64,000 bases of DNA from Candidatus Avidehalobacter gallistercoris (GCA_018715045.1 DVMH01000033.1:749-64748), one strand, 5' to 3'. Positions 13,422 through 50,590 are shown, counted from the first letter of the stretch. Numbers and translations are program-made. Notes: generated by a model from the sequence alone, not told the origin.

Positions 13422-14336
13422 ATGCCAATCAAAATCCCTAACGATTTGCCCGCCCGTTCTATTCTGGAGAGCGAGCATATATTCGTAATGACAGAAACAC
13501 GCGCGCTTACGCAGGATATCCGACCGCTGCGAATTGCCCTTGTGAACCTTATGCCTACCAAAATTGCCACCGAAACGCAGATTCTGCGTTGTCTGGCCAA
13601 CACGCCGCTGCAAATCGAGGTTCATCTTATCCACACCAAAAGCTATGTGGCCAAAAACACCTCAGAAGAGCATCTTTCCGCTTTCTACCGCACGGCAGAC
13701 GATGTTCTGGAGGAAAATTTCGACGGCGTTATCATCACCGGCGCACCTGTGGAAAACATGGCGTTTGAGGAGGTGGAATACTGGCCGGAACTTTGCCGTA
13801 TTATGGAATGGACGAAAACTCATGCCCACAGCACCATGCACATCTGCTGGGCGTCGCAGGCCGGACTTTATTACCACTATGGCGTGCCTAAGCGTCAGCT
13901 TCCTGGTAAGCTCTCCGGCGTGTACAGCCACTATATGCTGAATCCCAAAGCACGTCTGTTCCGTGGTTTCGACGAGGAATATTTTGCGCCCCATTCCCGC
14001 CACACTGAATCCGACCCGGAGGCCATTGCCAAGGTACCGCAGCTGCGCATTTTATCCGTCTCGCCGCAGGCTGGTATCCACATCGTCAGTGATCATGACA
14101 ACAAGCAATTTTTTGTCAGCGGCCATTCGGAATATGACCTCTATACGCTGCGCGACGAATATTTCCGCGATCTGGCCAAGGACATAAACGTCAAACTGCC
14201 ATTTAATTACTTCCCCGGCGACGACCCGGCGCAGAAACCAATCAACCGCTGGCGGGCACATGGCCAGCTGTTGTTCACCAACTGGCTGAATTATTATGTC
14301 TACCAGACAACTCCTTACGATTTGCAAAAGTTGTGA
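13422..14336 (+). CDS. metA: homoserine O-acyltransferase (MetA family; O-acetyl type expected in Firmicutes)
   Basis: 304 aa. The N-terminus MPIKIPNDLPARSILESEHIFVM...LRIALVNLMPTK is diagnostic of the MetA/HTS family. Confidence 0.85.
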   Translation: MPIKIPNDLPARSILESEHIFVMTETRALTQDIRPLRIALVNLMPTKIATETQILRCLANTPLQIEVHLIHTKSYVAKNTSEEHLSAFYRTADDVLEENFDGVIITGAPVENMAFEEVEYWPELCRIMEWTKTHAHSTMHICWASQAGLYYHYGVPKRQLPGKLSGVYSHYMLNPKARLFRGFDEEYFAPHSRHTESDPEAIAKVPQLRILSVSPQAGIHIVSDHDNKQFFVSGHSEYDLYTLRDEYFRDLAKDINVKLPFNYFPGDDPAQKPINRWRAHGQLLFTNWLNYYVYQTTPYDLQKL

Positions 14337-14373
14337 ACAGATTTTACCACTGTAATATAAACCAAATATTAAA

Positions 14374-14410
14374 GGCTCCCGCCTGCCGCACAGCAAGGGG
14401 AGCCTTTTGC
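14374..14410. terminator. rho-independent terminator after metA (probably bidirectional)
   Basis: GGCTCCCgcctgccgcacagcaaGGGGAGCC followed by TTTTGC. Confidence 0.5.
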
Positions 14411-14430
14411 ATTAAATTTTCGTCTGCTGT

Positions 14431-14766
14431 TCAGCGGTTGCCCTGATTTTCGTCCCCAGCGTTATATACCGCTTCTGCTCCATACATTTCAATGCGGTTG
14501 ACCATCTCCGGGGTAACGCTCTCAATACCGCCCAACTGGGCGCTTCCAGCCATGGCAGCCGTATATGCCGCCGTTGGCGCGTCATTGTTTACCGCAGGTT
14601 TCCTGGCCTGAGAACTTCCATTGCCAGCGGTAGCCGTGGGCGGATTTACGGTCTGCGAGGGAAGCCCCGGCTGAAGCGGCCTGCCATCCGGCAGATAACC
14701 TGCGTCGCCTCCTGGCACGGACTGCTCCAGCTTTTTCATCAAATCGTTTTCCTTGTTCGTATCCAT
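14431..14766 (-). CDS. hypothetical low-complexity (Pro/Ala/Gly/Asn-rich) protein
   Basis: Start MDTNKEND is preceded by a GGAGG RBS. No TM segment and no known motif. Confidence 0.4.
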   Translation of the reverse strand: MDTNKENDLMKKLEQSVPGGDAGYLPDGRPLQPGLPSQTVNPPTATAGNGSSQARKPAVNNDAPTAAYTAAMAGSAQLGGIESVTPEMVNRIEMYGAEAVYNAGDENQGNR

Positions 14767-15035
14767 ATGCTTGGCCTCCAATAATTCTAAAAAATATATC
14801 ATAAAACGGCAGCTGCGCGGCAGCAAATTTTTTAGACCGGCGCTACAGCCTTTACGTGGCTCTTTCTGCCGTATACCGCTATTTTTCGCGGGAAAGCCAT
14901 CGCTTATGCGCTACTGCTTTGCGGCAAAAAATAACAACCAGTTCAACCAGCCAAAAGAGGAATTGGGCATATTTTGTAGAAATTAATTTGTTAATAAAAT
15001 TGCACATTTTATAATAAACTAAACGAGGTCATATT

Positions 15036-16187
15036 ATGAAAAAAACTTTTATGCGCGGCTTTGCCGCTTTTCTTTTGGCTGCAGGGCTTTCAGCAACCCC
15101 TGCTCTAGCCGCCGATATTCAGATCACAGTAAACGGCAGCGCACTATCCTCCGACGTGGCTCCGATAGTAATCAACAACCGCACAATGCTACCGCTCAGA
15201 GCATGTGCAGAGGCGCTTTCCGCCACAGTAAATTACGATGCATCCGGACGTATTGATATTTACCGCGGTAATGACAAGATAGTTTTACTGCTGAACACAC
15301 CCTCAGCCTGGCTTAATGGCGAAAAACGCCCGCTGGACGTTGAACCGCAGGTGACGGATAACCGTACGCTGGTGCCGCTTCGCTTTATCGGCGAGGCGTT
15401 TGACTGTGCGGTGAACTGGCAGCAGGAGAATAATACTGTCAGTATCGTTGCCGCCGCCGGCAGCGGCCAGCAGGACACGGACGCACCCACGTTTCCATCC
15501 GACACGGATATAACACCGGAGAATGTGCCGGCTGACGTTACCATTACTAATCAGGCTTTGCAGCAGCTGAACAGCGTGCGTCTGCAAAAAAATTTGGACG
15601 CGCTCTCCACCGCTGCTGAGCTGAAAACAATGGCCGATGCGCACAGTAAGGATATGGCAGAGAACGGTTATTTCAGCAGCAATTCACCCACTGAGGGTAC
15701 TTTAAGCAGCCGTGCCAAGGCGCTTAATCTGCCACAACCCACTGAGATTATTGCCAAAATTGATTATCGCACTGAAACAGTATATCAGGCCGTTATGGAG
15801 TGGCTGACCAACGAGAACACGCGTTCCATACTGCTGGACGCCTCGGCAGGCTATATTGGTATCGGCGCCTATCAGCAGCCCGATACTACCTATGTTTATC
15901 TAACAGCAGAGATCATGCCATCCCGCGCCTATTTTACTGAGCTTCCCTCCTCTGCCGTCACCGTGCCAAAACTCACGGTGCGCGGCCGCAGTCAGCGCCT
16001 GACGGAGAATGTTATCGTCTATCAGCTGTCCGACGAGAACACTTATATGTATAGCGAGCGCAAAACGTATACCGCCAAGGGCGACGGTACTTATTTTTAC
16101 ACAGAGGTGGAGTTTGACGACCCCGGCAGGTATGCTTTGCAGGTGGGTAACTGTCTGGTCAAAGTAACGTACAAACCGGCTGAATAA
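15036..16187 (+). CDS. secreted protein with copper-amine-oxidase N-terminal-like repeats and a CAP/SCP-like domain
   Basis: Signal peptide (AAFLLAAGLSATPALA). Two repeats of the Cu_amine_oxidN1-type (NNRTMLPLRACAEAL, DNRTLVPLRFIGEAF). C-terminal CAP-like region. Confidence 0.6.
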   Translation: MKKTFMRGFAAFLLAAGLSATPALAADIQITVNGSALSSDVAPIVINNRTMLPLRACAEALSATVNYDASGRIDIYRGNDKIVLLLNTPSAWLNGEKRPLDVEPQVTDNRTLVPLRFIGEAFDCAVNWQQENNTVSIVAAAGSGQQDTDAPTFPSDTDITPENVPADVTITNQALQQLNSVRLQKNLDALSTAAELKTMADAHSKDMAENGYFSSNSPTEGTLSSRAKALNLPQPTEIIAKIDYRTETVYQAVMEWLTNENTRSILLDASAGYIGIGAYQQPDTTYVYLTAEIMPSRAYFTELPSSAVTVPKLTVRGRSQRLTENVIVYQLSDENTYMYSERKTYTAKGDGTYFYTEVEFDDPGRYALQVGNCLVKVTYKPAE

Positions 16188-16200
16188 AGGAGAATGGGCA

Positions 16201-16722
16201 TTGATCAAGTCATTTCTGCAAATGCTGGCACGAGTGGATACGTTTTTCTTCAACTTTTTCAATCAGAGCGTTAAATGCCATTTTCTGGACATAATCATGC
16301 CCTTGTTCACGCACTTAGCCGGTCTCGTGTCGGTGGTGGGCATTTGCCTTTTTCTACTGTTGTTTCTGCCATCCATACCTGGCACCAATGTGCTGGGCGC
16401 AGTGTTTTTTGCTCAGTTAGCCGCGCAGAGCATAAAGTTTATTATCAAGCGTGTGCGGCCGCATATCAAGCTGCCCAATGTCAACATTTATACCAAGCTA
16501 ATGCAATACGACCCCTCTTTCCCCAGCGCTCACACCGCCACTATCACGGCCGTAGGCGGGGTTATTGCCATCTTGCAGCCTGGATACGAGAATATTATCG
16601 CCGGCATATGCACGATGGTAGGCATATCTCGCATTTATCTGGGTCAGCATTATCCCGGTGATGTGCTGGCAGGCGCAGTTATCGGCATTGGTGCGGCATG
16701 GCTTTCCTGCCAGATTTTCTGA
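16201..16722 (+). CDS. PAP2-family phosphatase (undecaprenyl-diphosphatase-like)
   Basis: PAP2 motifs KRVRPH, PSAHT and SRIYLGQHYPGDV, with 4-5 TM helices. Confidence 0.75.
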   Translation: MIKSFLQMLARVDTFFFNFFNQSVKCHFLDIIMPLFTHLAGLVSVVGICLFLLLFLPSIPGTNVLGAVFFAQLAAQSIKFIIKRVRPHIKLPNVNIYTKLMQYDPSFPSAHTATITAVGGVIAILQPGYENIIAGICTMVGISRIYLGQHYPGDVLAGAVIGIGAAWLSCQIF

Positions 16723-16776
16723 TAAGCCCAATTTCGGATAAACTACTACATAAGTTCCGCTTCGCCGCAATAAATT

Positions 16777-16818
16777 GTAAAAAACAGGTATTCCCGGATA
16801 GGAATACCTGTTTTTTAC
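16777..16818. terminator. strong bidirectional terminator
   Basis: AAAAAACAGGTATTCCcggataGGAATACCTGTTTTTT: a perfect 15-bp stem flanked by an A-run and a T-run. Confidence 0.6.
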
Positions 16819-17094
16819 AACGTTTATAATATAACATCAATAAATACTATGCGCCGCATCTTACAGAAATAACTTCCATTCCGGACTCTGCTTTGCCAAA
16901 ATCAGGTGAAACTGCCAGACCGCATATTTCCAGATTTTCACGGCTTAGGACTATCTTACTTTTCATATCCGTTTATGGCAAGGCGCAGACACCCTAATGG
17001 ATTATCTGCGCCCGCCGCGGATTTATTTATCCGTCTTTAACATAATGCTGTAATTTTCAGCTGTAATATTCATCCCCCTTATTTCACTATCAGC

Positions 17095-35235: not shown

Positions 35236-36168
35236 TTATAACTCGCTCTTCGCCGTTAACACAAGCTTCTCTGATTTACTTTTTGCCGGTAACTGCGCCA
35301 GCATCACAGCTGCAAACATCATAATGCAGCCAAAGTATTCCCGCCCCGTCATGTGGTCATGCAGAATAATTGCCCCAGCCAATGTGGCAAACACAGCCTC
35401 CAAACTTAACAACAGCGAAACGGTAGTAGGATTGCTGCCTTTCTGAGCTAGAATTTGCAGCGTATAAGCTACACCGCTGGAAAGAATACCAACATAAAGT
35501 ATCGATCCCATTGCCGGCAACAGCGTTTCCCAAGACGGAGTTTCCGTCAACAGCATGCCAACCGATGAAAAGAGCATCATCACGAAGAACTGCGCACAGG
35601 AAAGCTGTATGCCATCCACCCGCACGGTGAAATAGTCGATCAACAAAATATGCCCGGTGAAGCAAAATGCGCACAGCAATACCATAAAATCGCCGGAGCT
35701 AATGGTAAAACCGCCGTTTATGCAGAGAAAATACAGACCGCAGACAGCAAGAGCCACGCTAAGCCACACCAAGCCCCGCACCTTTTTATGCAAAAACAGG
35801 CCGCATACCGGCACAAGAACTATATACAGCGCAGTAATGAAACCCGCTTTACCTGCCGTTGTCGTCTCCAGACCCTTTTGCTGTAAATATGTGGCTGTGG
35901 CCAGCGCCAGTCCACAGCACACGCCGCCCAAAAGAAGATCCTTGCGATAAGCAGAGCCTGATGGGATTATATCGTCTTTGTGCTGCCGCCAGCTTCTGAT
36001 GCATACGCACAGCATGAGCAAAAACAGAAACGCTACCGCCGAACGCGCCGCGTTAAACGTAAACGCCTGCACACTCTCCGCGGCCACGCTTTGCGCCACA
36101 AAAGCTATACCCCATATAAACGCCGCCAATGTCGGAAATACATTATGCCGGATAAAATCGGACTGCAT
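35236..36168 (-). CDS. DMT-superfamily (EamA-like) transporter
   Basis: 10-TM protein with duplicated EamA halves. Start MQSDFIR with a GAGAGGTG RBS. Confidence 0.7.
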   Translation of the reverse strand: MQSDFIRHNVFPTLAAFIWGIAFVAQSVAAESVQAFTFNAARSAVAFLFLLMLCVCIRSWRQHKDDIIPSGSAYRKDLLLGGVCCGLALATATYLQQKGLETTTAGKAGFITALYIVLVPVCGLFLHKKVRGLVWLSVALAVCGLYFLCINGGFTISSGDFMVLLCAFCFTGHILLIDYFTVRVDGIQLSCAQFFVMMLFSSVGMLLTETPSWETLLPAMGSILYVGILSSGVAYTLQILAQKGSNPTTVSLLLSLEAVFATLAGAIILHDHMTGREYFGCIMMFAAVMLAQLPAKSKSEKLVLTAKSEL

Positions 36169-36287
36169 AAACAAAACACCTCTCACCAGTATCAGCATAA
36201 ATAATAACAAATAATGCAAAGTTATTCTCATAGTATATACTATTGTCATACAATTTGCAATACCTAATAAAAAATTATAAAATCCCC

Positions 36288-36316
36288 TTGATTTTGTGTA
36301 AAAAACATGATATAAT
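36288..36316 (+). promoter_or_regulatory. near-consensus sigma-A promoter for tRNA-Ala (TTGATT-17-TGnTATAAT)
   Basis: -35 TTGATT at 36288-36293, a 17-nt spacer, extended -10 TGATATAAT at 36308-36316, about 12 nt before the tRNA 5' end. Confidence 0.6.
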
Positions 36317-36328
36317 GGTTTTCGTCTT

Positions 36329-36404
<76 letters not shown>

Positions 36405-36416
36405 ACAGGAAACCAG

Positions 36417-36459
36417 AAAAAGCATTGAAAACTCTATGTTTTCAATGCTTTTTCTTTTT
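36417..36459 (+). terminator. rho-independent terminator after tRNA-Ala
   Basis: AAAAGCATTGAAAACtctatgTTTTCAATGCTTTTTCTTTTT. Confidence 0.65.
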
Positions 36460-36485
36460 ATATTCGCCTTCTCCGCTCTGCTATC

Positions 36486-36597
36486 TGTTCCAGAACAATA
36501 CCAGAACAGATATACTGTCACGGAAAGATACTGGACAGGATAGCCTATCATCCATCATAAACCATCCCTTAAATTCTGGTACTGTACCAGAATTTAA
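36486..36597. repeat. cluster of CCAGAA/TTCTGG motifs including a 29-bp perfect palindrome (putative protein-binding site)
   Basis: TGTTCCAGAACA at 36486-36497 is a 5-2-5 palindrome. CCAGAACA is directly repeated at 36491-36498 and 36501-36508. TTAAATTCTGGTAC-T-GTACCAGAATTTAA at 36569-36597 has perfect 14-bp arms. All sit in a non-coding spacer between the convergent tRNA-Ala and araC-family genes. Confidence 0.5.
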
Positions 36598-36730
36598 GAG
36601 AAACACAGTGAATTTTCTGCGTTATCAGCATGAGCTTCCAAAGGTCTTACTGAATTTTTCGGCGGCGCACAGCCAAAATAAATCTCATTGCACGATTTGT
36701 TTGTCGAAACTTCCCTCAATTTGCGGAACA

Positions 36731-37600
36731 TTATTTTCGTTTTCCTCGGAAGTCTTTTGGTGAATATCCAGTTTGTTCCTTAAAAAGTTTACCAAAGTGA
36801 CTTTGAGACTGAAAGCCCACGGCCTGGGCTACCTCCCCAATGGGGAGTGCCGAATCCGTCAGAAGTACGGCGGCCATTTGCAAGCGGTATTTAAGCAGAT
36901 AACGATAGGGCGTGTCCTGCATGGACAGCTTAAAGCACCGCAGACATTCCGATTTGCTGACCCTGGCGCTTTGGGCCAAGTCACCCAATGTTATGGCTTC
37001 GGTATAATGCTCTTTGATATAATTTAAAAATATGTGCATTCGATGTACGACCATATCATGGACTGGGGCCGCCGGCACAGAAATGTTTTGCGCAAGCTCC
37101 AGCCAAATAGCAGCCAGCAGCGTTAATACTTCATATTCATAGCAGGCGGCTGCAGCCGGGTCAATTTCCGACAGCTGTTTCAGCCGTATAAGCACTCTCT
37201 CCTGCCAGGAGTTTGCCGCGTCAAATTGCAGGCAGGTGATCTGCTGACAGCTTGCGATCCTTTTCACATATTTCGCGGCCGGACAGCCAGGGTAAAAGGA
37301 TACTAACTGCTCCGGGAACAGGATGCTTTTATAATGACAGCTGGCCGAAGCCGAGACCATGTGGACAACATTTTTGTTGAGAAACACTCCTTGCCCAGTG
37401 GGAACCATCTTTGTCTGGGTCAGTGTGTGGAGATATAGTTCCCCTGCCAGCACATAGATGAATTGGAAGTCCTCGTGCCAGTGCATTATGTGAAAACCCG
37501 GCGGCTCAGGTACGCTTTTTCCGTTTTCAATATCCATGCACAGATAGGGAAAGTCCTGTCCTGTATTCAGATTGACAGAGTTCAAATAATTGTTCTGCAT
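36731..37600 (-). CDS. AraC-family transcriptional regulator (cupin sensor plus HTH)
   Basis: N-terminal cupin/AraC-binding-like domain; C-terminal AraC HTH (ITLGDLAQSARVSKSECLRCFK...IGEVAQAVGFQSQSHFGKLFKEQTGYSP). Confidence 0.8.
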   Translation of the reverse strand: MQNNYLNSVNLNTGQDFPYLCMDIENGKSVPEPPGFHIMHWHEDFQFIYVLAGELYLHTLTQTKMVPTGQGVFLNKNVVHMVSASASCHYKSILFPEQLVSFYPGCPAAKYVKRIASCQQITCLQFDAANSWQERVLIRLKQLSEIDPAAAACYEYEVLTLLAAIWLELAQNISVPAAPVHDMVVHRMHIFLNYIKEHYTEAITLGDLAQSARVSKSECLRCFKLSMQDTPYRYLLKYRLQMAAVLLTDSALPIGEVAQAVGFQSQSHFGKLFKEQTGYSPKDFRGKRK

Positions 37601-37723
37601 ATCCAGCCACCTCGCATTTTGGCGATATTATGATAAAATAGACTCGTATTCTTATAGATTATTCTAAACGGTTATGATATGATTATAGCAAAGATGGCTT
37701 TATTTGTATAGGGGGGCTTTGTG

Positions 37724-38944: not shown

Positions 38945-39589
38945 ATGGGATCGCTATATTTTCAATATGGCGAGCAGGAGCTCGCGTATCTAAAAAGCAA
39001 GGACAAAAAGCTGGCCGCGGTTATCGAGCGGGTAGGCCCCATTAAACGGGCGGTGGACGGCGACCTGTTCTCATCTGTGCTACATCACATCATCGGCCAG
39101 CAGATCTCCACAAAGGCTCAGCAGACCATTTGGACCAAGCTGACCGCCGAGTTGGAGTTGATCACCCCAGACACCATCCTGGCCTGTGGCCGAGACCGTC
39201 TCCAGGCCTTTGGCACCACATGGAAAAAGGCAGACTACATCCTGGACTTTGCCCAAAAGGTACAGTCTGGGAAGTTCGGCATAGAGGCGCTGAATGGCAT
39301 GACGGACGCAGAAGCCATTGCCGCGCTTTGCTCTCTGAAGGGCATCGGGGTGTGGACGGCGGAGATGATCCTGCTGTTTTGCTTCCAGCGACCCAACATT
39401 TTCAGTTATGGCGACCTGGCCATTCAGCGCGGTGTGCGTATGGTGTACCGCCATAAGGAATTACCCAAGGAGCGGTTCGAGCGGTACCGCAGGCGGTTCA
39501 GCCCCTATTGCAGCACGGCCAGCCTTTACTTCTGGGCCGTGGCCGGAGGGGCTGTTCCGGAGCTGACCGATCCGGCGGCGAAGAAATAG
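38945..39589 (+). CDS. alkA: DNA-3-methyladenine glycosylase II (HhH-GPD)
   Basis: HhH-GPD motif LKGIGVWTAEMILLF...GDLAIQRG with the catalytic Asp region. Confidence 0.8.
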   Translation: MGSLYFQYGEQELAYLKSKDKKLAAVIERVGPIKRAVDGDLFSSVLHHIIGQQISTKAQQTIWTKLTAELELITPDTILACGRDRLQAFGTTWKKADYILDFAQKVQSGKFGIEALNGMTDAEAIAALCSLKGIGVWTAEMILLFCFQRPNIFSYGDLAIQRGVRMVYRHKELPKERFERYRRRFSPYCSTASLYFWAVAGGAVPELTDPAAKK

Positions 39590-39598
39590 GAGGCGCTT

Positions 39599-39817
39599 AT
39601 GACAAGAGAGGAAATGGTGGCGGCGTGCCAGCGTCGAGCCAAAAGCTGTGTTGGAAGATTCTATCTCGCTGTAAAAAGCACAAAGATCGTCTGCCATCCA
39701 GACTGTTCTTCCAAGGTGCCTTTAGAAAAGAACATGGTCTTTTATGACACATTGGAGGCGGCGCTGGCGGACGGCTACCGCCCCTGTAAACGCTGTATGA
39801 AAGAAATGTGGAGGTAG
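39599..39817 (+). CDS. stand-alone Ada-like Zn-binding (methylphosphotriester-sensing) domain protein
   Basis: 72 aa. FYLAVKSTKIVCHPDCSS...GYRPCKRC matches the Ada_Zn_binding Cys4 pattern. It is not fused to an AraC HTH or to Ogt. Confidence 0.6.
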   Translation: MTREEMVAACQRRAKSCVGRFYLAVKSTKIVCHPDCSSKVPLEKNMVFYDTLEAALADGYRPCKRCMKEMWR

Positions 39818-39823
39818 TGGATC

Positions 39824-40177
39824 TTGGGAAATATGATCGTGCTGTTTGAAGTCACCGTTAAGGACGGTAAAATGGAGAACTACCAGAAAATGGCGGCGGG
39901 TCTGAAAGACGCGCTGTTCCAGGCCGACGGATTTATCCGCTCCGAACGGTTCTCCTCTTTAAAAGATAAGGGCAAGCTGCCCAACATGTCTGTGCGGGAG
40001 AACAAGGCCAGCGTAAAGCGGTGGCGCAATCTGACGGCTCATCGAATGTGCCAGAAGCACGGGCGCATGGAGGATTTAGCCGGCTATGCCATCACCGTTG
40101 TCACGCCCAAGCGCACCTACTCCATGACCCGGCGGCAGGGTGCGCCGGTGGACTCCACCCGCTTTTTGGAGGTGTAA
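39824..40177 (+). CDS. small ABM/Dabb-like (antibiotic-biosynthesis-monooxygenase fold) protein, hypothetical
   Basis: 117 aa (TTG start, or ATG at 39833). A weak ABM-fold impression only. It sits between ada-Zn and ogt. Confidence 0.4.
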   Translation: MGNMIVLFEVTVKDGKMENYQKMAAGLKDALFQADGFIRSERFSSLKDKGKLPNMSVRENKASVKRWRNLTAHRMCQKHGRMEDLAGYAITVVTPKRTYSMTRRQGAPVDSTRFLEV

Positions 40178-40179
40178 GT

Positions 40180-40713
40180 ATGCAGTACACAACTACGTAT
40201 CAATCTCCGTTGGGAGCCATAACGCTGGCCGCCGACGGCGAGGCGCTCACCGGACTGTGGTTTGAGGGTCAGAAATACTACGCGCTCTATCTGGACAAGG
40301 AGCATGAAGAAAAGGACTTGCCTGTGTTCCAGCAGGCCAAGGAATGGCTGAACATCTATTTTTCGGGCAAAGACCCAGATTTCACCCCACCTTTACGGTT
40401 TACCGGTTCAGCTTTTCAAAACGAGGTTTGGGCCATTTTGGCCGCTATACCCTACGGCAAGACCCGCACCTACGGCGACATCGCTCAGGAGCTGGCCCAG
40501 AAACGAGGACTGCCCCGGATGTCCGCCCAGGCGGTAGGAGGAGCCGTGGGGAAAAACGAGATCTCCATCATCGTTCCCTGCCATCGGGTGGTGGGCGCCA
40601 ACGGTAGTTTGACAGGCTATGCCGGCGGGATCAGCAAGAAGATCGCACTGCTAAAACTTGAGGGGGCTTTCAAGGAAGCATACTTTATCCCCAAGCACTC
40701 CACAGCGCCATGA
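40180..40713 (+). CDS. ogt: methylated-DNA--protein-cysteine methyltransferase (O6-alkylguanine repair)
   Basis: Active site IVPCHRVVG and HTH-like DNA-binding region. GGAGGTG RBS before MQYTTTY. Confidence 0.85.
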   Translation: MQYTTTYQSPLGAITLAADGEALTGLWFEGQKYYALYLDKEHEEKDLPVFQQAKEWLNIYFSGKDPDFTPPLRFTGSAFQNEVWAILAAIPYGKTRTYGDIAQELAQKRGLPRMSAQAVGGAVGKNEISIIVPCHRVVGANGSLTGYAGGISKKIALLKLEGAFKEAYFIPKHSTAP

Positions 40714-41666
40714 ACAATACGATGAAAAAAATCGAGCTGGGCCTTTTTCCCACACCGCTGCAAAAGTCATCGCTCAGTATAGAGTTAGGAAATATTTGCC
40801 TTTATCTAAAGCGGGATGACCTGTGCGGAATCGGCTTTGGTGGAAACAAGGTGCGCAAGCTGGAGTATATCCTGGCGGATGCCATCGCAAAGGGCGCGGA
40901 CTGCGTGGTGACAGGCGGCGGTTCACGTTCCAATCAGACCGTGGCAGCGGCGGCCTGCTGCGCCAAGGCAGGGCTGGAGGTCCATATTGTCATACCAGAG
41001 AGTGCGCCCAATGTGACCAAATCTCTGATCACACTGTCCGGTGGGATATTGCATACAACGCCCGACGGTCAGAGAAGCACTCTGACAAAAACCATGCGCA
41101 ACGTTGCAAAAGAGCTCCAAGCCCAGGGGCAAACGCCCTACACCATTCCCGTTGGAGCTTCGTCTCCGTTAGGCGCCGTTGGCTATGTGGAAGCCATGCG
41201 TGAAATATGCAGCCAAGCTGCTGAACTGAATATTGCGATAGACCACGTGATTTGCTGCGGAGGCACCGGAAACACCTATGCAGGTGTGGCTTTGGGTGCA
41301 AAACTGTATAGCCCCAAGACCAGAGCAACTGTTATTTCCATTGGGCGGCGTTTTGCCCACAAGGAGACTTTGCTCCGCCAGATCCATAAAACTGAAGCCC
41401 TTTTGAAATGCGAAAGCGGCATTGAACTGGACGATCTGCATATCCATTTCTCCTGCGGCAAGGGTGCGGGATTGCCATCCGTCAAGGGATGGGAGGCAAT
41501 AAAGCGCATGGTGGCGGCAGAGGGCATTTTCTTAGATCCCTACTACACAGGAAAAGCCTTTGCGGGATTGATGGAATTATCCCAATATGAAACGTTACAT
41601 CCCGGCGAAAATGTGGTATTTCTTCACACAGGCGGTATGGTTTCCCTTATTGGCGAGACTTCATAG
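40710..41666 (+). CDS. PLP-dependent ACC deaminase/D-cysteine desulfhydrase family enzyme
   Basis: Trp-synthase-beta-II fold with the ACCD/DcyD N-terminal signature (LFPTPLQK...LYLKRDDLCG..GGNKVRKLEYIL). Confidence 0.75.
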   Translation: MNNTMKKIELGLFPTPLQKSSLSIELGNICLYLKRDDLCGIGFGGNKVRKLEYILADAIAKGADCVVTGGGSRSNQTVAAAACCAKAGLEVHIVIPESAPNVTKSLITLSGGILHTTPDGQRSTLTKTMRNVAKELQAQGQTPYTIPVGASSPLGAVGYVEAMREICSQAAELNIAIDHVICCGGTGNTYAGVALGAKLYSPKTRATVISIGRRFAHKETLLRQIHKTEALLKCESGIELDDLHIHFSCGKGAGLPSVKGWEAIKRMVAAEGIFLDPYYTGKAFAGLMELSQYETLHPGENVVFLHTGGMVSLIGETS

Positions 41667-41834
41667 AATTATTAAAACATACCTCAAATTGAGGGGCATT
41701 TTGTCAAAAATATGTCTCAAGCCGAAACGTATTTTATTTCCGCTTCATGAAATTATGCACTATAATTTATTTCGAGGAGTTTTATCTCTGCTTGATGTTC
41801 CCTTTCAGCTTGATGACAAGGCTATACCAGCCCT

Positions 41835-43088
41835 TTACAGTTCAATCCTGTCTGGAAACGCTTCCTTTCGCATAATGCCCCACATTTTGTCGATATAGGA
41901 CAGGGTATAGAAGTTCTCGTAATAATGGTAATAGAACGCGCCTTTCAAGGTCATGGCGTATGTACCATTTTCTTCGGTCACAAAGCCCAAGAGTTTGGCG
42001 ATCCATAGCTCGAAGCAATACATCTGCTTCAATGGTACACCAAAGAACCTTTCAAAGTCCTTTACGTTTACTTTCGTGCTGTATGCTGTCCAGAACAGCC
42101 AGTAAATCATTCGCTGTCGCTTCGTGAAGCGAATGGTCAGAGAAGTAGCCAGCGTTCCGCTGTTGATCCGATCGCAATAGGATTCAATATCAAATGTATT
42201 GATCTTAAACTGATCTCTCAGCAGGGTTGTTGCAGAACAGCCGAAGCCCAAGAAGTTGTCTCTTGTCATAGAAGAATAATTGGCTTCCGGTTCGCTGAAG
42301 AATGTCCAGATAGAGCTGCGGGAATATCCTTTGCTCATGCAATACCTTGTAATGCTGTCAAGAAGCTCTCGCTTTTCCTTTTTCGGCATGGTTTTTATAG
42401 GGCTTGCCGTAAAGGTGAAATCAATAAACGGATAGATGGCAACATGATTGGCGCCCAGAAAAAAGGCTTCGTCAATGTCGGATTTCAAATCATCGTAAGT
42501 CTGCTCTGGAAGGGCAAAGATAAAGTCCATAGAAACAGTTTCAAACTTCACCGCGTCCAATGCCTTTTTCATTTTATTGGTATCGACAGTCTTTCTTCCA
42601 AGGATGCTCTGATACTTATTGCGGAAAGACTGAATGCCAATGCTGATCTTGGTCACACCGGCAGCCCTTAACACCGCCAGAACTTCCTCTGTCACATTAT
42701 CAGGGTGCAGTTCCAACCCGATTCCCTCTGTAATGATAAAATGCTCGTTCAGAGCTTCGATGATTTCACCAATGCGGTCAACTGCCAAAGCCGGTGTGCC
42801 GCCGCCAAAATATAAACTGGTTACTCTTTTCTTGCCCGGATGCTGATTTCCTACAAGATGAATCTCCCTTATCAGGGAATCTATGTACCTGTCGCAAAGC
42901 TCTTTGGAATAGCGAACTTTACAATAGGGGCAAAAATTACATATACTTTTACAAAACGGAATGTGAACATACAATCCGAGGTTTTCACATTCAGCAAAGG
43001 GCAGTATTTGGTCGTATTCATTTTTGAAAGTAAATGGCTGTACTGTTCGGGTAAGCCACATTCTTGTCAGACTTGTGATAAAGCTCAT
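41835..43088 (-). CDS. HemN-like (class C) radical-SAM enzyme with a HemN_C-type C-terminal domain; function unknown (methyltransferase-type candidate)
   Basis: 417 aa. YVHIPFCKSICNFCPYC (CxxxCxxC), GGGTP, G-rich SAM motifs. About 42-45% GC against a 56% surround. Start lies 8 nt after the upstream SPASM gene stop, so the two are translationally coupled. Confidence 0.8.
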   Translation of the reverse strand: MSFITSLTRMWLTRTVQPFTFKNEYDQILPFAECENLGLYVHIPFCKSICNFCPYCKVRYSKELCDRYIDSLIREIHLVGNQHPGKKRVTSLYFGGGTPALAVDRIGEIIEALNEHFIITEGIGLELHPDNVTEEVLAVLRAAGVTKISIGIQSFRNKYQSILGRKTVDTNKMKKALDAVKFETVSMDFIFALPEQTYDDLKSDIDEAFFLGANHVAIYPFIDFTFTASPIKTMPKKEKRELLDSITRYCMSKGYSRSSIWTFFSEPEANYSSMTRDNFLGFGCSATTLLRDQFKINTFDIESYCDRINSGTLATSLTIRFTKRQRMIYWLFWTAYSTKVNVKDFERFFGVPLKQMYCFELWIAKLLGFVTEENGTYAMTLKGAFYYHYYENFYTLSYIDKMWGIMRKEAFPDRIEL

Positions 43089-43095
43089 ATTACTC

Positions 43096-43998
43096 CTAAA
43101 TATACTTCAAATATGTACGAAGCATCTCAATGATTATTTTGGGCTTTCCCCTGAACAATAGTGTGTATTCTGCAACAAAGAAATAGCCGCACTGTTCGCA
43201 AAGACCGGGAACATCTATGCATCGTCCACAAGTGGACAGTTTCCCGTTTTCCATAACAACACACTGATGGCAAGGTGTGGGGAAACGATTTTCGATAAGA
43301 TAGGGAAACGCACTTTTTAGATTGAATACTGGTGCGCCCTCTTTCATCATTTGAGTTATCGTATCGCAACACTTGGCTTTTTCTTCTTTACTCAAAGACA
43401 ATTCCTTGGTATCGGGATAAGGTGTATGGAAATTGAAAGATACAGCACGAACATTTTTGGTATCACGTGCAGTTAAGCATACATCCCGTACATAGTTTTT
43501 GTTGATTTGATTGATTGCCATATAAAAGCAGATATTTTCTGCTGTAGCGTTGTTGATGTTCCTCATAATGGTATCGTAAGTGTCGCCACGGATTTCATTA
43601 TGACGTTCTCTATCACCGTCTAAACTCAAAAGAATTAAATCTGCTTCTGGAAGATCAATGGTACATGTTCCATTCGTAACGACATTGACGATAAGGAACC
43701 CCATAGCTTTTGCTTCAATGACCAAATCTCTTAATGTGCGCTCGCCATCTTTCCAGAGAAATGTTTCCCCGCCGCAGAAAAACAAAATGCGTACTCCCAT
43801 ATCATATAGCTGCTGCATTTCTTGGCTAATTTGTTTGTATGGATAAACGATTGCCGTGATATTGTTAACGGAGCAATGTTTACAATGCAAATTGCATTTA
43901 TCCGTAATAATCACAGTTCCAAGAATTGGAGCCTTCTTGCCAAAAAGGATTGTCTTGATCCCAAAGGAGGCAAAGCGCAAAAAAGATGACAGTTTCAT
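43096..43998 (-). CDS. radical-SAM protein with a Cys-rich SPASM/twitch-like C-terminus; uncharacterised maturase candidate
   Basis: 300 aa. DKCNLHCKHC (CxxxCxxC) at residues 34-43, FFCGGETFLW, and seven C-terminal Cys (KCCD, CHQC, CGRC, CEQCGYF). Low GC. Own RBS GGAGAT. Confidence 0.7.
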   Translation of the reverse strand: MKLSSFLRFASFGIKTILFGKKAPILGTVIITDKCNLHCKHCSVNNITAIVYPYKQISQEMQQLYDMGVRILFFCGGETFLWKDGERTLRDLVIEAKAMGFLIVNVVTNGTCTIDLPEADLILLSLDGDRERHNEIRGDTYDTIMRNINNATAENICFYMAINQINKNYVRDVCLTARDTKNVRAVSFNFHTPYPDTKELSLSKEEKAKCCDTITQMMKEGAPVFNLKSAFPYLIENRFPTPCHQCVVMENGKLSTCGRCIDVPGLCEQCGYFFVAEYTLLFRGKPKIIIEMLRTYLKYI

Positions 43999-44045
43999 GT
44001 TCTATCTCCATAAGATAAATGAATTCAACTGTGTATCCATACTTT

Positions 44046-44074
44046 ATTATATACGATTATTGCAGTTTCTTCAA
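44046..44074 (-). promoter_or_regulatory. sigma-A-like promoter (TTGAAG-17-TATAAT) reading into the rSAM pair
   Basis: On the minus strand: TTGAAG aaactgcaataatcgta TATAAT, about 40 nt upstream of the SPASM-gene RBS. Preceded by a weak hairpin plus T-run (CCAAGgtattCTTGGaacgtgttttt) downstream of the small ORF. Confidence 0.4.
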
Positions 44075-44156
44075 ATTGGTACGCCAAAATTTACCGCATT
44101 AAAGTGTAAAATTTTAAAAACACGTTCCAAGAATACCTTGGAGCGTGTATAAATCA

Positions 44157-44285
44157 ATCAAGTGGTCTGTATTATGTTACCGCTTTTAGACAGAGCTTCG
44201 GTATTGCTGTTGAGTATCAGATCAGCGTATGCAATCGGAACATTGTAGATGAGCATATTGAACTTGCAAGATAATAAACACTTCA
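44157..44285 (-). CDS. small ORF (42 codons) with a strong RBS; candidate precursor/substrate peptide for the adjacent rSAM enzymes
   Basis: AAGGAGG-8nt-ATG. Translation: MKCLLSCKFNMLIYNVPIAYADLILNSNTEALSKSGNIIQTT*. Same strand as, and about 160 nt upstream of, the SPASM gene. Too short for the 60-aa ORF track. Coordinates may be off by 1-2 nt. Confidence 0.3.
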
Positions 44286-44318
44286 TAGAAAAACCTCCTT
44301 AATTTCAATGTTTTGGTG

Positions 44319-44359
44319 GTAAAAAAGAACGATGCCGGTCATAAGACTCGGCATCGTTC
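44319..44359 (-). terminator. rho-independent terminator after the anti-sigma gene (potential attenuator before the small ORF)
   Basis: On the minus strand: AGAACGATGCCGagtcttatgacCGGCATCGTTCTTTTTT, a 12-bp stem. Ends about 35 nt before the small-ORF RBS. Confidence 0.6.
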
Positions 44360-44494
44360 TATCGTTGTTGTTTTCCAACCCTGTCAGACAGATGCCGTAA
44401 AATCTAAATCTTTTAGAATTACTGTCTTACGAGCACCCGTCTAACGCCCGGCTTTTTTCATTTTACATAGTCTGATTTATTCAGGCTTCAGCAA

Positions 44495-45340
44495 TTATTT
44501 GGCATTGATAATTTCCTCGGCCATCGTGAATATATCATCAGCGGTCAATGTCAGATCCCAGCCAAACAGGTTGTAATGTACGCCGTCCGCGTACCAGTCA
44601 GCGGCTTTCAGATACTTTTCTTCCACTTCAGCAGAGCCATAGCTCATAACCAAGTCACCCCGATCCATTGCAGCCTGCTCTTCAGCAGAAATTTCATAGT
44701 CCGGCGGCACAAATTTGTACTGGTATTCCGAGTATGTAATGGTAATATCGCCCACCGTTTGGGTAATGACATTCTTGGCAGCAGGGTCAACATAATCCGC
44801 CGGGAACGCCGTCTGAGGAATACTGTCGGTATACAGATTAAGTTCCTCGCCGGTTTCCGCGTTGATATAGTTCAAATCACAATTAGTATACTGTTTACCA
44901 ATGTCATTATGGTTCTCATCCGTTCCCTGTGATACACTCAGCGATGCCGACTCAAAGGTAAATCCGTTAGTAAATTCTTCCACTGACTTTGGTGTATATT
45001 CCAGCTGCGGCAGAAGTTTTTCAGCCACATCAACGTATACCTTGGTATCGCTGCCGATGATATTGTGACTGTGCCAGCCATGTACAATACCAGTAGCAGC
45101 CATTGCCGTCATGCACATCAGGCAAAAAACAGCGCAGAACGCCACGATAAAGCGTTTACTGAATCTTTTCATAAATATTCTCTCCTTCCACGAAGCATTT
45201 GCCCCGTCTTGCTTATAATCTTTGATTTTTGCCATCAATCTGGCCTCCGCAAAGGACGAAACCTCCATGCTGTCAACAGCGTGGTGCAACGCTGCAGCAA
45301 TTTTACGGTCAGGCTCGGTTGGATATTTTTGGCAATCCAT
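44495..45340 (-). CDS. membrane-anchored anti-sigma factor with an extracytoplasmic domain
   Basis: Short cytoplasmic N-terminus, one TM (FIVAFCAVFCLMCMTAMAA), acidic extracellular domain. Overlaps the 3' end of the sigma gene. Start uncertain (TTG at the ORF top, or an internal Met). Confidence 0.6.
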   Translation of the reverse strand: MDCQKYPTEPDRKIAAALHHAVDSMEVSSFAEARLMAKIKDYKQDGANASWKERIFMKRFSKRFIVAFCAVFCLMCMTAMAATGIVHGWHSHNIIGSDTKVYVDVAEKLLPQLEYTPKSVEEFTNGFTFESASLSVSQGTDENHNDIGKQYTNCDLNYINAETGEELNLYTDSIPQTAFPADYVDPAAKNVITQTVGDITITYSEYQYKFVPPDYEISAEEQAAMDRGDLVMSYGSAEVEEKYLKAADWYADGVHYNLFGWDLTLTADDIFTMAEEIINAK

Positions 45341-45896
45341 GGTATGTTTCCCCCTTCCCTGCGTCAGCAAGATAACCGCGCAGATTCTGCCGCGCCATAA
45401 ACAGACGGCTTTTCACTGTGCCGGTCAGCGCTCCAGTGGCGGCAGCAATCTCCCCTACTGAAAGCTCATTGTAATAATAAAGAATAATAACAGTTTTTTG
45501 TTTTAAGGGCAGACGGTTTATGGCAGCCAAAAGCTCGTGTTCCTGCTCCTGGTCGGTCAAAATATCCAACGTCGAGCGCCCTTTTGGTTCTTTAGCCTGA
45601 TAAGCGTCGAATACGTCGGCCACCGGGCTTTCCCTATCGCGCTTTTTGCAATAATCCCAAGCCGTGCGAGTAAGTATGCGATAAAACCAGCTCTTAAAGC
45701 CCTCGGCATCGCGCAGACTGCCAATCGACTGGTAACACTTCAAAAACGTGTCTTGCAGCACGTTTTCGCTATCACATTGACTGCCCGTAATAAGATAAGC
45801 CGCCCGGATTGCCGGGGTTTTGTAAAGCTGATAAAGCTCGGTAAAGGCGCCTTCGTCACCAGCCTGCCAGCTTTTCATTAACCTCGTCTCATCCAT
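45309..45896 (-). CDS. ECF-type RNA polymerase sigma-70 family factor
   Basis: Region 2 (FTELYQLYKTPAIRAAYLITGS..DTFLKCY) and region 4 HTH (LSVGEIAAATGALTGTVKSRLFMARQNLR). AAAGGTGG RBS before MDETR. Confidence 0.8.
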   Translation of the reverse strand: MDETRLMKSWQAGDEGAFTELYQLYKTPAIRAAYLITGSQCDSENVLQDTFLKCYQSIGSLRDAEGFKSWFYRILTRTAWDYCKKRDRESPVADVFDAYQAKEPKGRSTLDILTDQEQEHELLAAINRLPLKQKTVIILYYYNELSVGEIAAATGALTGTVKSRLFMARQNLRGYLADAGKGETYHGLPKISNRA

Positions 45897-46024
45897 GTTC
45901 TCGCCACCTTTCATTTAAGGCTTTGGCGTTTTAGTTTCAGTAGCTACTGTATATAAGACAACTGATAGTCCGTTTTGGTTCAAAAAAATTTTGCCATGAT
46001 TTGGCGCAGGGTGAAAAACGCATA

Positions 46025-49431: not shown

Positions 49432-49914
49432 GTGAGCAATTTGCGGGAAAATAAACAGAACAAGCCAGAAGACGATTTTTACACGCTGACGGGCTATCAA
49501 CAGAGGGAGCAGCCAGAGCTTACCCCGGCAATGGAAGATTATCTGGAAATGATATGCCGTCTGGCTGAGGAAAGCCCCGTAGTGCGGCGGCGGGAAATTG
49601 CCGGGCATTTGCACGTCAGTCCCGCCAGCGCCAGCAAAATGACACAGCAACTGAAAGAAGACGGTTACATCAATGCAGAGAGATATGGCTACGTCAGCCT
49701 GACGGATAAAGGACGGCTCGTGGGCCAATACCTGCTGTTTCGACATCAGGTGCTGCACCGTTTTCTCTGTGCGTTGAATGGAAGCAGCAATGAATTGGAA
49801 CAGGCCGAAAAGCTGGAACACTTTCTGAACCCCATTACCGTGGAGAACCTCTGGCAACTGACTAAACGCATGGAAGCCGGCGATCCGCTTGACAAAACAC
49901 CGGCCGAGTATTAA
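49432..49914 (+). CDS. DtxR/IdeR/MntR-family metal-dependent transcriptional regulator
   Basis: TPAMEDYLEMICRL...REIAGHLHVSPASASKMTQQLKEDGYI winged HTH plus a metal-binding/dimerisation region. Divergent from feoAB. Start may be later than 49432. Confidence 0.8.
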   Translation: MSNLRENKQNKPEDDFYTLTGYQQREQPELTPAMEDYLEMICRLAEESPVVRRREIAGHLHVSPASASKMTQQLKEDGYINAERYGYVSLTDKGRLVGQYLLFRHQVLHRFLCALNGSSNELEQAEKLEHFLNPITVENLWQLTKRMEAGDPLDKTPAEY

Positions 49915-49926
49915 ACTTGAGTTTAG

Positions 49927-49972
49927 ACAACGTACAAATAAATGAAGCGGCGCTAATTAAAGCCACCGCTTC
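49927..49972 (+). terminator. rho-independent terminator after the dtxR-family gene
   Basis: AAATAAATGAAGCGGcgctaattaaagccaCCGCTTCATTTATT. Confidence 0.55.
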
Positions 49973-50035
49973 ATTTATTAAGGAAAAAAGAGAAAAAATA
50001 GATAGATTCAAATTTATGATAAAGGACTGCATAGC

Positions 50036-50590
50036 ATGACCTACAACACCAAAAGCCAGCTGACCAAGCAGGCGTTGTGCGACGCGCTGAAAAAGCTGTT
50101 GACCAAGAAAACTATTGATCAAATCACCATCGGCGAGATAACCGCCGAAGCAGGCTTCAACCGCCAGACGTTTTATTATCACTTTCGCGACATTTATGAT
50201 TTGTTGACGTGGGTATTCAATCAAGAACTAAGAGTTATCCGCCCTTATTTGGACAAGCCTAACGTGAACTGGCAGGAAACGCTGAGGCAATCGATAATCT
50301 ACCTAAGCCACAACAAATATCTGTGCAGCTGCGTTATTCACGGCGTTGGACGCGAACAACTGATGTTTACTCTGCATGACAGCATTTATGATCTGATTAA
50401 ATACGTTATTATACACGAAAACGATATCCGCCCCATACCGCCCAAACATCTGGATTTCACCGTGGAATTCTACACTCACGCAATCAGCCACAGCCTCTAT
50501 AACTGGATATCAGACGGTATGCGTGAAACACCGGAAGAACTGCTTGAACACCTTAGCTTTGTTATCAGCAGGGCCACACAACAGGATTAA
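50036..50590 (+). CDS. TetR/AcrR-family transcriptional regulator
   Basis: N-terminal TetR HTH (ITIGEITAEAGFNRQTFYYHFRDIYDL); 184 aa. Confidence 0.7.
   Translation: MTYNTKSQLTKQALCDALKKLLTKKTIDQITIGEITAEAGFNRQTFYYHFRDIYDLLTWVFNQELRVIRPYLDKPNVNWQETLRQSIIYLSHNKYLCSCVIHGVGREQLMFTLHDSIYDLIKYVIIHENDIRPIPPKHLDFTVEFYTHAISHSLYNWISDGMRETPEELLEHLSFVISRATQQD

Follow-up and report, generated by a model that had tools for sequence, protein, structure and literature searches.

What does a pair of radical-SAM enzymes act on when the only other gene beside them is a very small ORF that could be taken for a peptide substrate? The question is raised by three minus-strand ORFs in the 64-kb window (the whole stretch of DNA that we analysed): a 42-aa ORF (44158..44286), the gene for a 300-aa twitch/SPASM-type radical-SAM protein, here called A (43096..43998; deposited as HIU10918.1), and the gene for a 417-aa HemN-like (class C-type) radical-SAM protein, here called B (41835..43088; deposited as HIU10917.1). 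ORF calls at these coordinates agree with the original prediction of the three genes. That prediction pointed to a RiPP cluster, in which the 42-aa ORF would encode a precursor that A crosslinks and B C-methylates, and offered as an alternative a module of two enzymes that mature a small molecule or a cofactor.

An operon that arrived with a phage-type gene

The two enzyme genes are tightly coupled. B starts 7 nt past the A stop codon, so the coupling proposed earlier stands and only the gap, given as 8 nt, needs correction. Together A and B are 41.7% GC (GC3 0.40 and 0.51), and their flanking genes are 52-58% GC (GC3 0.56-0.69) within a window mean of 51.4%; the low GC of the unit had been recognised correctly, but its surroundings had been placed at 55-58%. 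A sigma-70-type promoter-like element, TTGAAG-17-TATAAT, lies on the minus strand at 44046..44074, some 48 nt before the start codon of A, and across 134 non-redundant loci TATAAT clusters at positions -57 to -38 upstream of A. No operator common to the upstream regions of these loci was found, only generic -35/-10 elements, and an Rfam scan of 41000-46000 returned neither a riboswitch nor a leader. The data support a compact, coupled two-gene operon with its own promoter and a foreign base composition.

The promoter had been attributed to the three-gene unit as a whole. The element is where it was predicted to be, but it lies downstream of the 42-aa ORF and of a terminator-like hairpin with a U-run just past that ORF (44115..44148, minus strand; -14.3 kcal/mol, z = -5.0), and therefore drives A and B alone. 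The hairpin between the 42-aa ORF and the enzymes is thus real; what the earlier description lacked is a second, stronger intrinsic-terminator-like hairpin followed by U6 (44320..44360, minus strand; -25.3 kcal/mol, z = -9.4), which precedes the 42-aa ORF and is kept in three related loci (L009, L017 and L025). With a terminator and the A/B promoter between them, the 42-aa ORF is predicted to be transcriptionally insulated from the enzymes, and the idea of an attenuator-like arrangement giving a high precursor-to-enzyme ratio fails on that insulation.

The stronger terminator lies at the upstream end of a low-GC block, defined by blastn and the GC profile, that is common to the closest loci, L017 and L025. 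Its boundaries (about 41826..44457, minus strand) differ slightly from the extent of 41667-44360 first proposed, and it comprises, in order, a terminator, a DUF6061 gene, a terminator, the promoter, A and B. Alignments to intact genes place the 42-aa ORF as what is left of this DUF6061 gene (PF19537; phrog_28749), a family that includes gp89 of Faecalibacterium phage FP_Toutatis. The ORF retains two blocks of the family, one N-terminal (MK..SC.FN) and one C-terminal (LIYN.P.AYADLILN), but compared with intact copies it has a 114-nt in-frame internal deletion (38 codons) and is thrown out of frame over its last ~12 codons by a 1-nt insertion; its Pfam DUF6061 match covers only profile positions 47-72 of 81, short of the full length of about 81 aa. 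Intact copies are 81-84 aa long and under purifying selection (dN/dS ~0.10). Just four loci have one, of 81 aa (L017, L025, L121 and L175), at the same position in the closest relatives, and in L018/L019 the gene has been deleted altogether. In its intact form DUF6061 belongs to the moron-type genes of phages; a literature search on the family gave nothing relevant. A and B reached this genome in a low-GC block that also brought in a phage-type DUF6061 gene, and this gene later decayed to the 42-aa ORF. Among strains with an identical neighbouring PALP gene we found no empty insertion site, as A and B are present in all of them.

This history has direct implications for the RiPP reading. There is a good deal that invites it: the 42-aa ORF has a strong RBS (AAGGAGG) and lies 159 nt upstream of A, much as the original prediction described it, SkfB and SuiB, both RiPP maturases, are among the structural neighbours of A, and B resembles the class C enzyme NocN. 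RiPP methylation is a known activity of class C enzymes (NosN, NocN and TbtI among them), and thiopeptide and sactipeptide clusters, with their maturase and class C methyltransferase, present the same combination of a SPASM/twitch-like and a HemN-like protein beside a small ORF. In contrast to those clusters, however, A and B come without a conserved precursor, RRE, transporter, protease or immunity gene, and searches of both proteins against Pfam and NCBIfam gave no PqqD/RRE match. In protein databases the 42-aa ORF matches itself alone, with no homologue outside the species, and the co-occurrence that a precursor should show does not materialise, since none of about 160 other A/B loci has a counterpart and no other recurrent small ORF was found beside A and B. 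The alignments show the 42-aa ORF to be a pseudogene that stands outside the enzyme system and encodes no precursor peptide. In other words, because it is the remnant of a broken phage-type gene, the A/B locus is no RiPP cluster, and we leave that reading next to no probability. The case illustrates that a small ORF in the right place and with a good RBS may look like a RiPP precursor even though it is a decaying phage gene.

Family placement of the two enzymes

A has the radical-SAM motif Cx3Cx2C at C35/C39/C42 and a GGE motif. Its C-terminal region had been described as seven-Cys and SPASM/twitch-like, and neither the count nor the SPASM label survives closer comparison: the region contains eight Cys, of which three are kept family-wide (C267 in 38 of 38 members, C270 in 37 of 38 and C257 in 25 of 38), it lacks the 7-Cys motif, and the SPASM profile (PF13186) finds no match. 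Twitch enzymes are recognised by a short beta-hairpin/helix region with 3-4 conserved Cys that comes after the radical-SAM core, and by a fold like that of BtrN, MoaA, BlsE or SkfB. A shows this pattern, and its C-terminal region seems better described as twitch-like with three conserved Cys, which probably hold one auxiliary Fe-S cluster. In the predicted structure only one N-terminal helix lies ahead of the radical-SAM core, and when tested as an amphipathic membrane anchor this helix was no different from control segments.

Among curated models, A scores best against TIGR03961 (the PTO1314 family), as do 36 of 38 diverse members of its own family (best E = 2.6e-41). The two families are similar in size and in their radical-SAM core. 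With 43.5 bits where the cutoff is 306, however, A belongs to a sister group of PTO1314 and is not a member, and other scores within the A family (60.5, 63.9 and 72 bits) also fall far short. Since PTO1314 is itself annotated as a "hypothetical equivalog" and is uncharacterised, no function can be transferred from it; a literature search on PTO1314/TIGR03961 returned nothing relevant. The solved twitch/SPASM structures (BlsE, GDGT-MAS/Tes, SkfB, SuiB, anSME, MoaA and viperin) are 13-21% identical to A, which differs from them in combining a twitch-like set of three conserved C-terminal Cys with neither the 7-Cys SPASM pattern nor an RRE. Because these relatives act on nucleosides, lipids, peptides and proteins, the fold leaves the substrate of A unfixed.

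B is HemN-like, as was proposed from the outset. It has the motifs C46x3C50x2C53x2C56 and YFGGGTP and a Pfam PF04055 match, and shares with HemN-like families the Cx3Cx2C radical-SAM core, the region around YxGGGTP and a C-terminal half of the HemN type; its fourth Cys is in CxxC instead of CxC spacing and is not conserved. A PDB sequence search with A and B gave only distant radical-SAM matches, which for B include HemN (1OLT; E = 7e-23, improving to 3.7e-40 when the family profile is used) and NocN (E = 5e-20). All HemN-like NCBIfam models match B at E = 1e-36 to 1e-56, and none reaches its curated cutoff: the best, PRK08629, scores 191 bits against 355, and the STM4012, HutW, HemW and HemN models likewise stay below theirs. 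The HemN_C profile (PF06969) does not match, and a literature search on STM4011/4012 gave nothing relevant.

These similarities raise the question of whether B is simply a housekeeping protein, HemW or coproporphyrinogen dehydrogenase, with A as an unrelated Fe-S neighbour. The automatic UniRef name of B is indeed "Heme chaperone HemW", and the HemW and HemN models match at E = 1e-36 to 1e-38. The scores, however, are 129.6 bits against a cutoff of 205.4 for HemW (TIGR00539) and 125 against 325 for HemN (TIGR00538), the HemW motif HNxxYW occurs in 0 of 17 B orthologues, and the HemN motifs GPRYTSYPTA and RNFQGYTT (PMC10320005) are absent from all 17. ChuW/HutW fits no better, with 140 bits against the TIGR04107 cutoff of 400 and no chu/hut-type neighbours in any locus. 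The distribution of A and B is patchy, their GC is foreign, and the obligate adjacency and co-divergence described below are incompatible with chance neighbours. The profile searches place B outside HemW, HemN and HutW, its conserved synteny is with A and includes no small ORF, and a housekeeping role is very improbable.

A relationship to quinone enzymes was considered in the same way. Of the six MenK/MqnK/MenK2 signature motifs of Wilkens et al. (2021), tabulated in PMC10320005, NxFxxxxY is present in 15 of 17 B orthologues and the other five in none, which sets B apart from MenK/MqnK as well. Having neither the HemN and HemW motifs nor five of the six MenK/MqnK motifs, B can be given no quinone or heme role by homology. 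The literature that we searched describes no HemN-like family whose members are obligately paired with a twitch-type radical-SAM protein. The scores, with B below every curated cutoff and A far short of that for PTO1314, support the view, already put forward in the original prediction, that neither would fall in a characterised family.

An always-paired module under strong purifying selection

B lies directly downstream of A in 84 of 85 genome loci, the single exception being at a contig end, and in all 74 metagenome loci with room downstream. The adjacency holds even in branches where A is 48-52% and B 31-37% identical to the present proteins, and over 137 loci the two diverge together (Spearman 0.89, Pearson 0.95). 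The flanks of distant loci are unrelated, and flank clustering of 83 loci revealed no recurrent third gene, whether transporter, protease, immunity gene or other. Between genomes whose labels put them in different families and phyla, amino-acid identity is 78-91%; dN/dS is ~0.04-0.07, and synonymous sites are mostly saturated. A and B are thus an always-paired module under very strong purifying selection with no other conserved partner, and sequences this strongly conserved imply a function that is both important and precise. An apparent A-B fusion, P0153, was down-weighted as Rosetta-stone evidence because both of its halves carry internal deletions.

We considered whether the pair might be a phage-borne moron or an anti-phage defence system, in which a viperin-like radical-SAM protein and its partner make a modified nucleotide or other antiviral product. 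The similarity of A to viperin and pVip is confined to the generic core, with 32.9 bits against 180 for NCBIfam viperin_w_prok and a PADLOC pVip match (E = 3e-10) that spans residues 31-151 and not the full length. Defence genes usually evolve fast, unlike A and B with their extreme purifying selection. Moreover, the loci show no recurrent defence-island context, only one viral contig was found, and plasmids and complete phages, searched by tblastn with A, gave no match. A defence role is therefore quite improbable.

The conservation is more readily matched by another explanation, in which A and B modify a conserved macromolecule whose gene lies elsewhere (rRNA or tRNA, or a protein of the ribosome or another housekeeping function) in the manner of Cfr/RlmN or of protein-modifying enzymes, perhaps conferring resistance or tolerance. 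Sequence identity this high across such labels is typical of enzymes that dock on conserved macromolecules. A standalone pair found in varied contexts under distant taxonomic labels is also reminiscent of resistance genes, and both proteins are mildly basic (pI 8.3 for A and 7.9 for B). On the other hand, neither has an RNA-binding or RRE domain, and we know of no HemN-like enzyme that acts on RNA. The pair is absent from sequenced plasmids and complete phages, and in other genomes the GC of A and B is matched to that of the host, which indicates long residence and argues against recent resistance-type spread. Together with the coupling of remote A relatives to membrane prenyltransferases, described below, these observations make a macromolecular target unlikely, although it is an alternative to be taken seriously.

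A candidate pathway on a small molecule or cofactor

The reading that we prefer is that A and B form a self-contained two-enzyme module acting in sequence on a small molecule or cofactor, to which we assign a probability of about 0.5. It corresponds to the alternative in the original prediction, and it is the one favoured by the evidence: as A and B have neither a precursor nor an RRE, a transporter or any further partner, a ubiquitous substrate that is not genetically encoded is the most likely. The extreme conservation, it should be said, would equally fit a macromolecular target, such as an RNA or protein encoded elsewhere.

In this two-enzyme module A would abstract hydrogen by means of a 5'-deoxyadenosyl radical, or add that radical to the substrate, at a site beside its auxiliary cluster. 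B would use the two-SAM chemistry of HemN and class C enzymes, in which a SAM-derived methylene radical could bring about methylation, cyclopropanation or ring opening; alternatively, it may carry out an oxidative decarboxylation of the HemN type. 

Remote branches of the A family provide some indication of what the substrate might be. In six of the seven distinct neighbourhoods sampled, these proteins, only ~30% identical to A, are coupled in an operon to MenA-like UbiA (naphthoate) prenyltransferases, one of which passes the TIGR00751 MenA cutoff, and one remote locus sits between nqr and hemN-hemH-hemY. From this coupling, and because characterised relatives of B act on menaquinone or tetrapyrroles, a hydrophobic aromatic cofactor would be the likeliest substrate class, and by analogy a quinone-like or porphyrin-like compound may serve as a lead. 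The present locus has no such context: as noted originally for cofactor-pathway genes, no heme or quinone genes lie within ~10 kb of A and B, and searches of the 64-kb window and the flanks of all HemN-paired loci (by tblastn for MenA/UbiA) detected no MenA/UbiA-like, men/mqn or heme genes.

A more specific proposal is that A and B carry out a two-step radical pathway, so far undescribed, for making or remodelling a membrane redox cofactor in strict anaerobes of gut and rumen that lack the canonical pathways. This is a doubtful extension of the small-molecule reading, and we hold its odds to be low. If it were true, the cofactor would be quinone-type (salvaged or novel) or porphyrin-type, the wider A family and its MenA-like partners would represent a branch not recognised before in the biosynthesis or modification of quinones, and might supply the missing enzymes for one of the rare quinones. 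The coupling of remote A relatives to MenA-like proteins in any case offers a concrete starting hypothesis.

Carriers of A and B include many gut, rumen and sediment anaerobes. A single cluster at 90% identity has more than 4,400 member sequences, and a relative is found in more than 550 species-level genomes, so that, if they act as inferred, A and B would count among the commoner radical-SAM systems still uncharacterised in the microbiomes of gut and rumen. Some of the carriers are in culture (Stomatobaculum longum ACC2, Allofournierella massiliensis DSM 100451, Colidextribacter sp. OB.20 and Pseudoflavonifractor sp. 60), which makes the function of the pair directly testable.

Linkage and distribution of the radical-SAM pair

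The genes for the 300-aa twitch/SPASM-type radical-SAM enzyme (A, 43096..43998) and the 417-aa HemN-like radical-SAM enzyme (B, 41835..43088) form an autonomous, co-inherited and strongly constrained two-gene operon on the minus strand, with 7 nt between them. The proteins are deposited as HIU10918.1 (A) and HIU10917.1 (B) of 'Candidatus Avidehalobacter gallistercoris', class Clostridia, and many gut-metagenome contigs encode exactly this 300-aa protein in identical synteny. Homologues of A with 78-91% identity are found in at least 80 species-level genomes among at least 556 confirmed matches, including the cultured carriers Stomatobaculum longum, Allofournierella massiliensis, Colidextribacter and Pseudoflavonifractor. 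The genomes are labelled as Oscillospiraceae, Lachnospiraceae, Eubacteriaceae, Treponema/Spirochaetota, Kiritimatiellia and Coriobacteriia, although MAG labels may be wrong; two of the compared loci, L016 and L018, match at equal coordinates and are alike in the structure of their upstream regions, yet their bins belong to different phyla. The 90%-identity database cluster of A has 4,413 members, a size that needs care because its mixture of 300-aa and 417-aa sequences, represented by a 417-aa protein, is probably a clustering artefact.

The B gene directly follows the A gene in 84 of 85 loci, the single exception being a contig end, and in all 74 metagenome loci with room downstream; in L010 and L046, the 5' part of B looks damaged. 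The pairing holds even in metagenome branches whose A and B share just 48-52% and 31-37% identity, respectively, with the window copies, and the identities of the two proteins to those copies are correlated over 137 loci (Spearman 0.89, Pearson 0.95). In most loci, DNA similarity ends at the A start codon and the B stop codon; a wider block, 41826..44457, is common to the closest lineage only. Clustering of all flanking ORFs revealed no other recurrent gene and no common mobility gene. Within the representative library, a 537-aa protein (P0153) consists of one ORF in which an A-type radical-SAM domain runs straight into a HemN-like domain; internal segments are missing from both halves, which points to either a degenerate fusion or a decaying pair with read-through.

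The small ORF and its DUF6061 relatives

The original prediction described a third co-directional minus-strand gene, a 42-aa ORF, which is indeed present (44158..44286), with an AAGGAGG RBS and an end 159 nt from the A start. The attenuator layout proposed for it is not borne out. A good terminator-like hairpin with a U-run (-14.3 kcal/mol, z = -5.0) lies 3' of the small ORF, and a stronger one (-25.3 kcal/mol, U6, z = -9.4) just upstream of it. A promoter-like site, TTGAAG-17-TATAAT (44074..44046), sits in the gap that separates the small ORF from the A gene. The positions of these elements thus place the small ORF between two terminators and give the enzymes their own promoter, downstream of the 3' hairpin. 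Downstream of B, the PALP and HemN-like genes converge on a short palindromic hairpin (41682-41694) that is flagged as terminator-like on both strands and may be a shared bidirectional terminator.

In Pfam, the small ORF matches DUF6061 at profile positions 47-72 of 81 only, and a search of 5.8 billion proteins gave no match but the ORF itself, on 45 contigs that seem to belong to one species. A tblastn search pointed to Faecalibacterium phage FP_Toutatis, in which a DUF6061 gene is annotated at the right-hand end, directly after the lysis genes. The nearest relatives of the window block (L017, L025 and the metagenomic loci L121 and L175) carry an intact 81-aa DUF6061 gene (phrog_28749) in the position of the small ORF, ~160 nt upstream of A. 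Where intact, the gene evolves under purifying selection (dN/dS about 0.10) and so is functional there. Aligned with the intact copies, the window copy is missing 114 nt (38 codons) in frame and has a 1-nt insertion, with the last ~12 codons frame-shifted. Within the same lineage, the whole gene is gone in L018/L019 and only frame-broken traces are left in L009. The small ORF is therefore a pseudogene passenger, and the DUF6061 gene is dispensable for A and B. The deletion and frameshift argue against it as a RiPP precursor, the locus has no RiPP architecture, and no such ORF accompanies the enzymes at ~160 other loci bearing the pair. A RiPP cluster in which the 42-aa ORF encodes the precursor is essentially refuted.

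Composition, transfer and neighbouring genes

The pair has 41.7% GC (GC3 0.40 and 0.51), compared with 52-58% (GC3 0.56-0.69) for the genes around it and a window mean of 51.4%. By composition, the window copy is foreign and probably a more recent acquisition. Elsewhere, the GC content of the pair follows the host (53% in L010, 38.5% in L011), and dN/dS is 0.04-0.07 wherever dS is measurable, with synonymous saturation in most comparisons; low dN/dS and host-matched GC together indicate that the A-B family is old and tightly constrained. The window pair is a mosaic, with A closest to the L017/L018/L023 lineage (dS 1.1-1.3) and B closest to L025/L053/L009 (dS 0.8-1.5); when either gene is compared with the other's nearest lineage, synonymous sites are saturated. 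Thus, the segment 41835-43998 looks recombinant. The insertion is present in all sampled strains with an identical neighbouring PALP gene.

The pair was not found on sequenced plasmids or complete phages. In one IMG/VR contig (L095), it lies just past a prophage lysis cassette; this placement and the DUF6061 passenger hint that transfer is occasionally linked to phage. Some phage association would also suit a defence or moron module, a role argued against by the conservation of the pair and the lack of defence context. The prophage end in L095 (4412-10583, the single IMG/VR match) encodes tail fibre, holin and endolysin, and also a diversity-generating retroelement with Avd, reverse transcriptase and a tail target.

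Several other features of the neighbourhoods were recorded. A DNA-alkylation repair cluster in the window (38945-41666) comprises an HhH-GPD glycosylase, an Ada Zn-finger protein, an ABM-domain protein and MGMT. Behind it comes the gene for a PLP enzyme (D-cysteine desulfhydrase / XcbE / CuyA type), with a 4-nt overlap between its start and the MGMT stop. At 44495-45914, an ECF sigma factor gene overlaps that of a 291-aa putative anti-sigma protein with no Pfam or NCBIfam family; at 46-50%, their GC content falls between that of the host and that of the low-GC block, and they may be a separate acquisition. Two more low-GC patches (0.39-0.45) occur at 36000-37700 and 49750-50500. In L009, the A-B pair is followed ~4-5 kb downstream by a Gabija-like defence pair (14113-16960), made up of a UvrD-type helicase and an OLD-family ATPase/TOPRIM protein.

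Predicted chemistry and remote relatives of A

B is clearly HemN-like yet falls under every curated cutoff, the nearest model being PRK08629 (191 bits against a cutoff of 355). We checked B and 16 orthologues for the published HemN, HemW and MenK/MqnK signatures, as quoted in PMC10320005; all of these proteins lack the motifs of HemN and that of HemW, and of the six MenK/MqnK motifs five are missing as well. The scores and missing motifs place B, at the sequence level, in a distinct HemN-like clade of uncharacterised chemistry. Together with the obligate pairing to A, they exclude plain HemW/HemN housekeeping.

For A, PF04055 is the sole Pfam match, with no SPASM match, and every NCBIfam model scores far below its cutoff. 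The best of these, for the uncharacterised PTO1314 family, is also the best for 36 of 38 diverse A-family members; an exhaustive search gave 109 representative clusters at E < 1e-30. Only C257, C267 and C270 are conserved among eight C-terminal cysteines, which fits one predicted auxiliary cluster that may, as in MoaA, leave a coordination site open. A and B are both members of known superfamilies; neither their obligate pairing nor either subfamily appears to have been described in the literature searched.

We suggest that A and B would act in sequence on one ubiquitous, non-encoded substrate, most plausibly a hydrophobic aromatic cofactor that is quinone- or tetrapyrrole-like. A would contribute a 5'-dA-radical step beside the auxiliary cluster, and B two-SAM chemistry of the class C/HemN type. 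The extreme conservation of the pair also fits a macromolecular target encoded elsewhere.

The partner of A differs in remote branches (~30% identical to A). In six of seven distinct neighbourhoods sampled, the A relative is tightly coupled to a UbiA-family prenyltransferase gene, with gaps of 2-40 nt or 4-nt overlaps, in place of the HemN-like B of the window clade. These units, with MenA-like UbiA prenyltransferases, lie at L177:3970-5894, L178:4003-5894, L179:5001-7225, L181:4001-6073, L182:3012-4900 and L183:4001-6258. This pairing appears undescribed, and suggests that the wider A family acts on membrane aromatic or prenylated cofactors. No MenA/UbiA-like gene was found in the window or at any A-B paired locus, and transfer of the MenA link to the window clade is purely hypothetical. 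MenA models are the top NCBIfam hits of the partners in L177, L178 and L179, the three that were scanned, and one of these partners exceeds the TIGR00751 cutoff. The L183 unit lies between an Na+-NQR operon (nqrB-F) and hemN-hemH-hemY.
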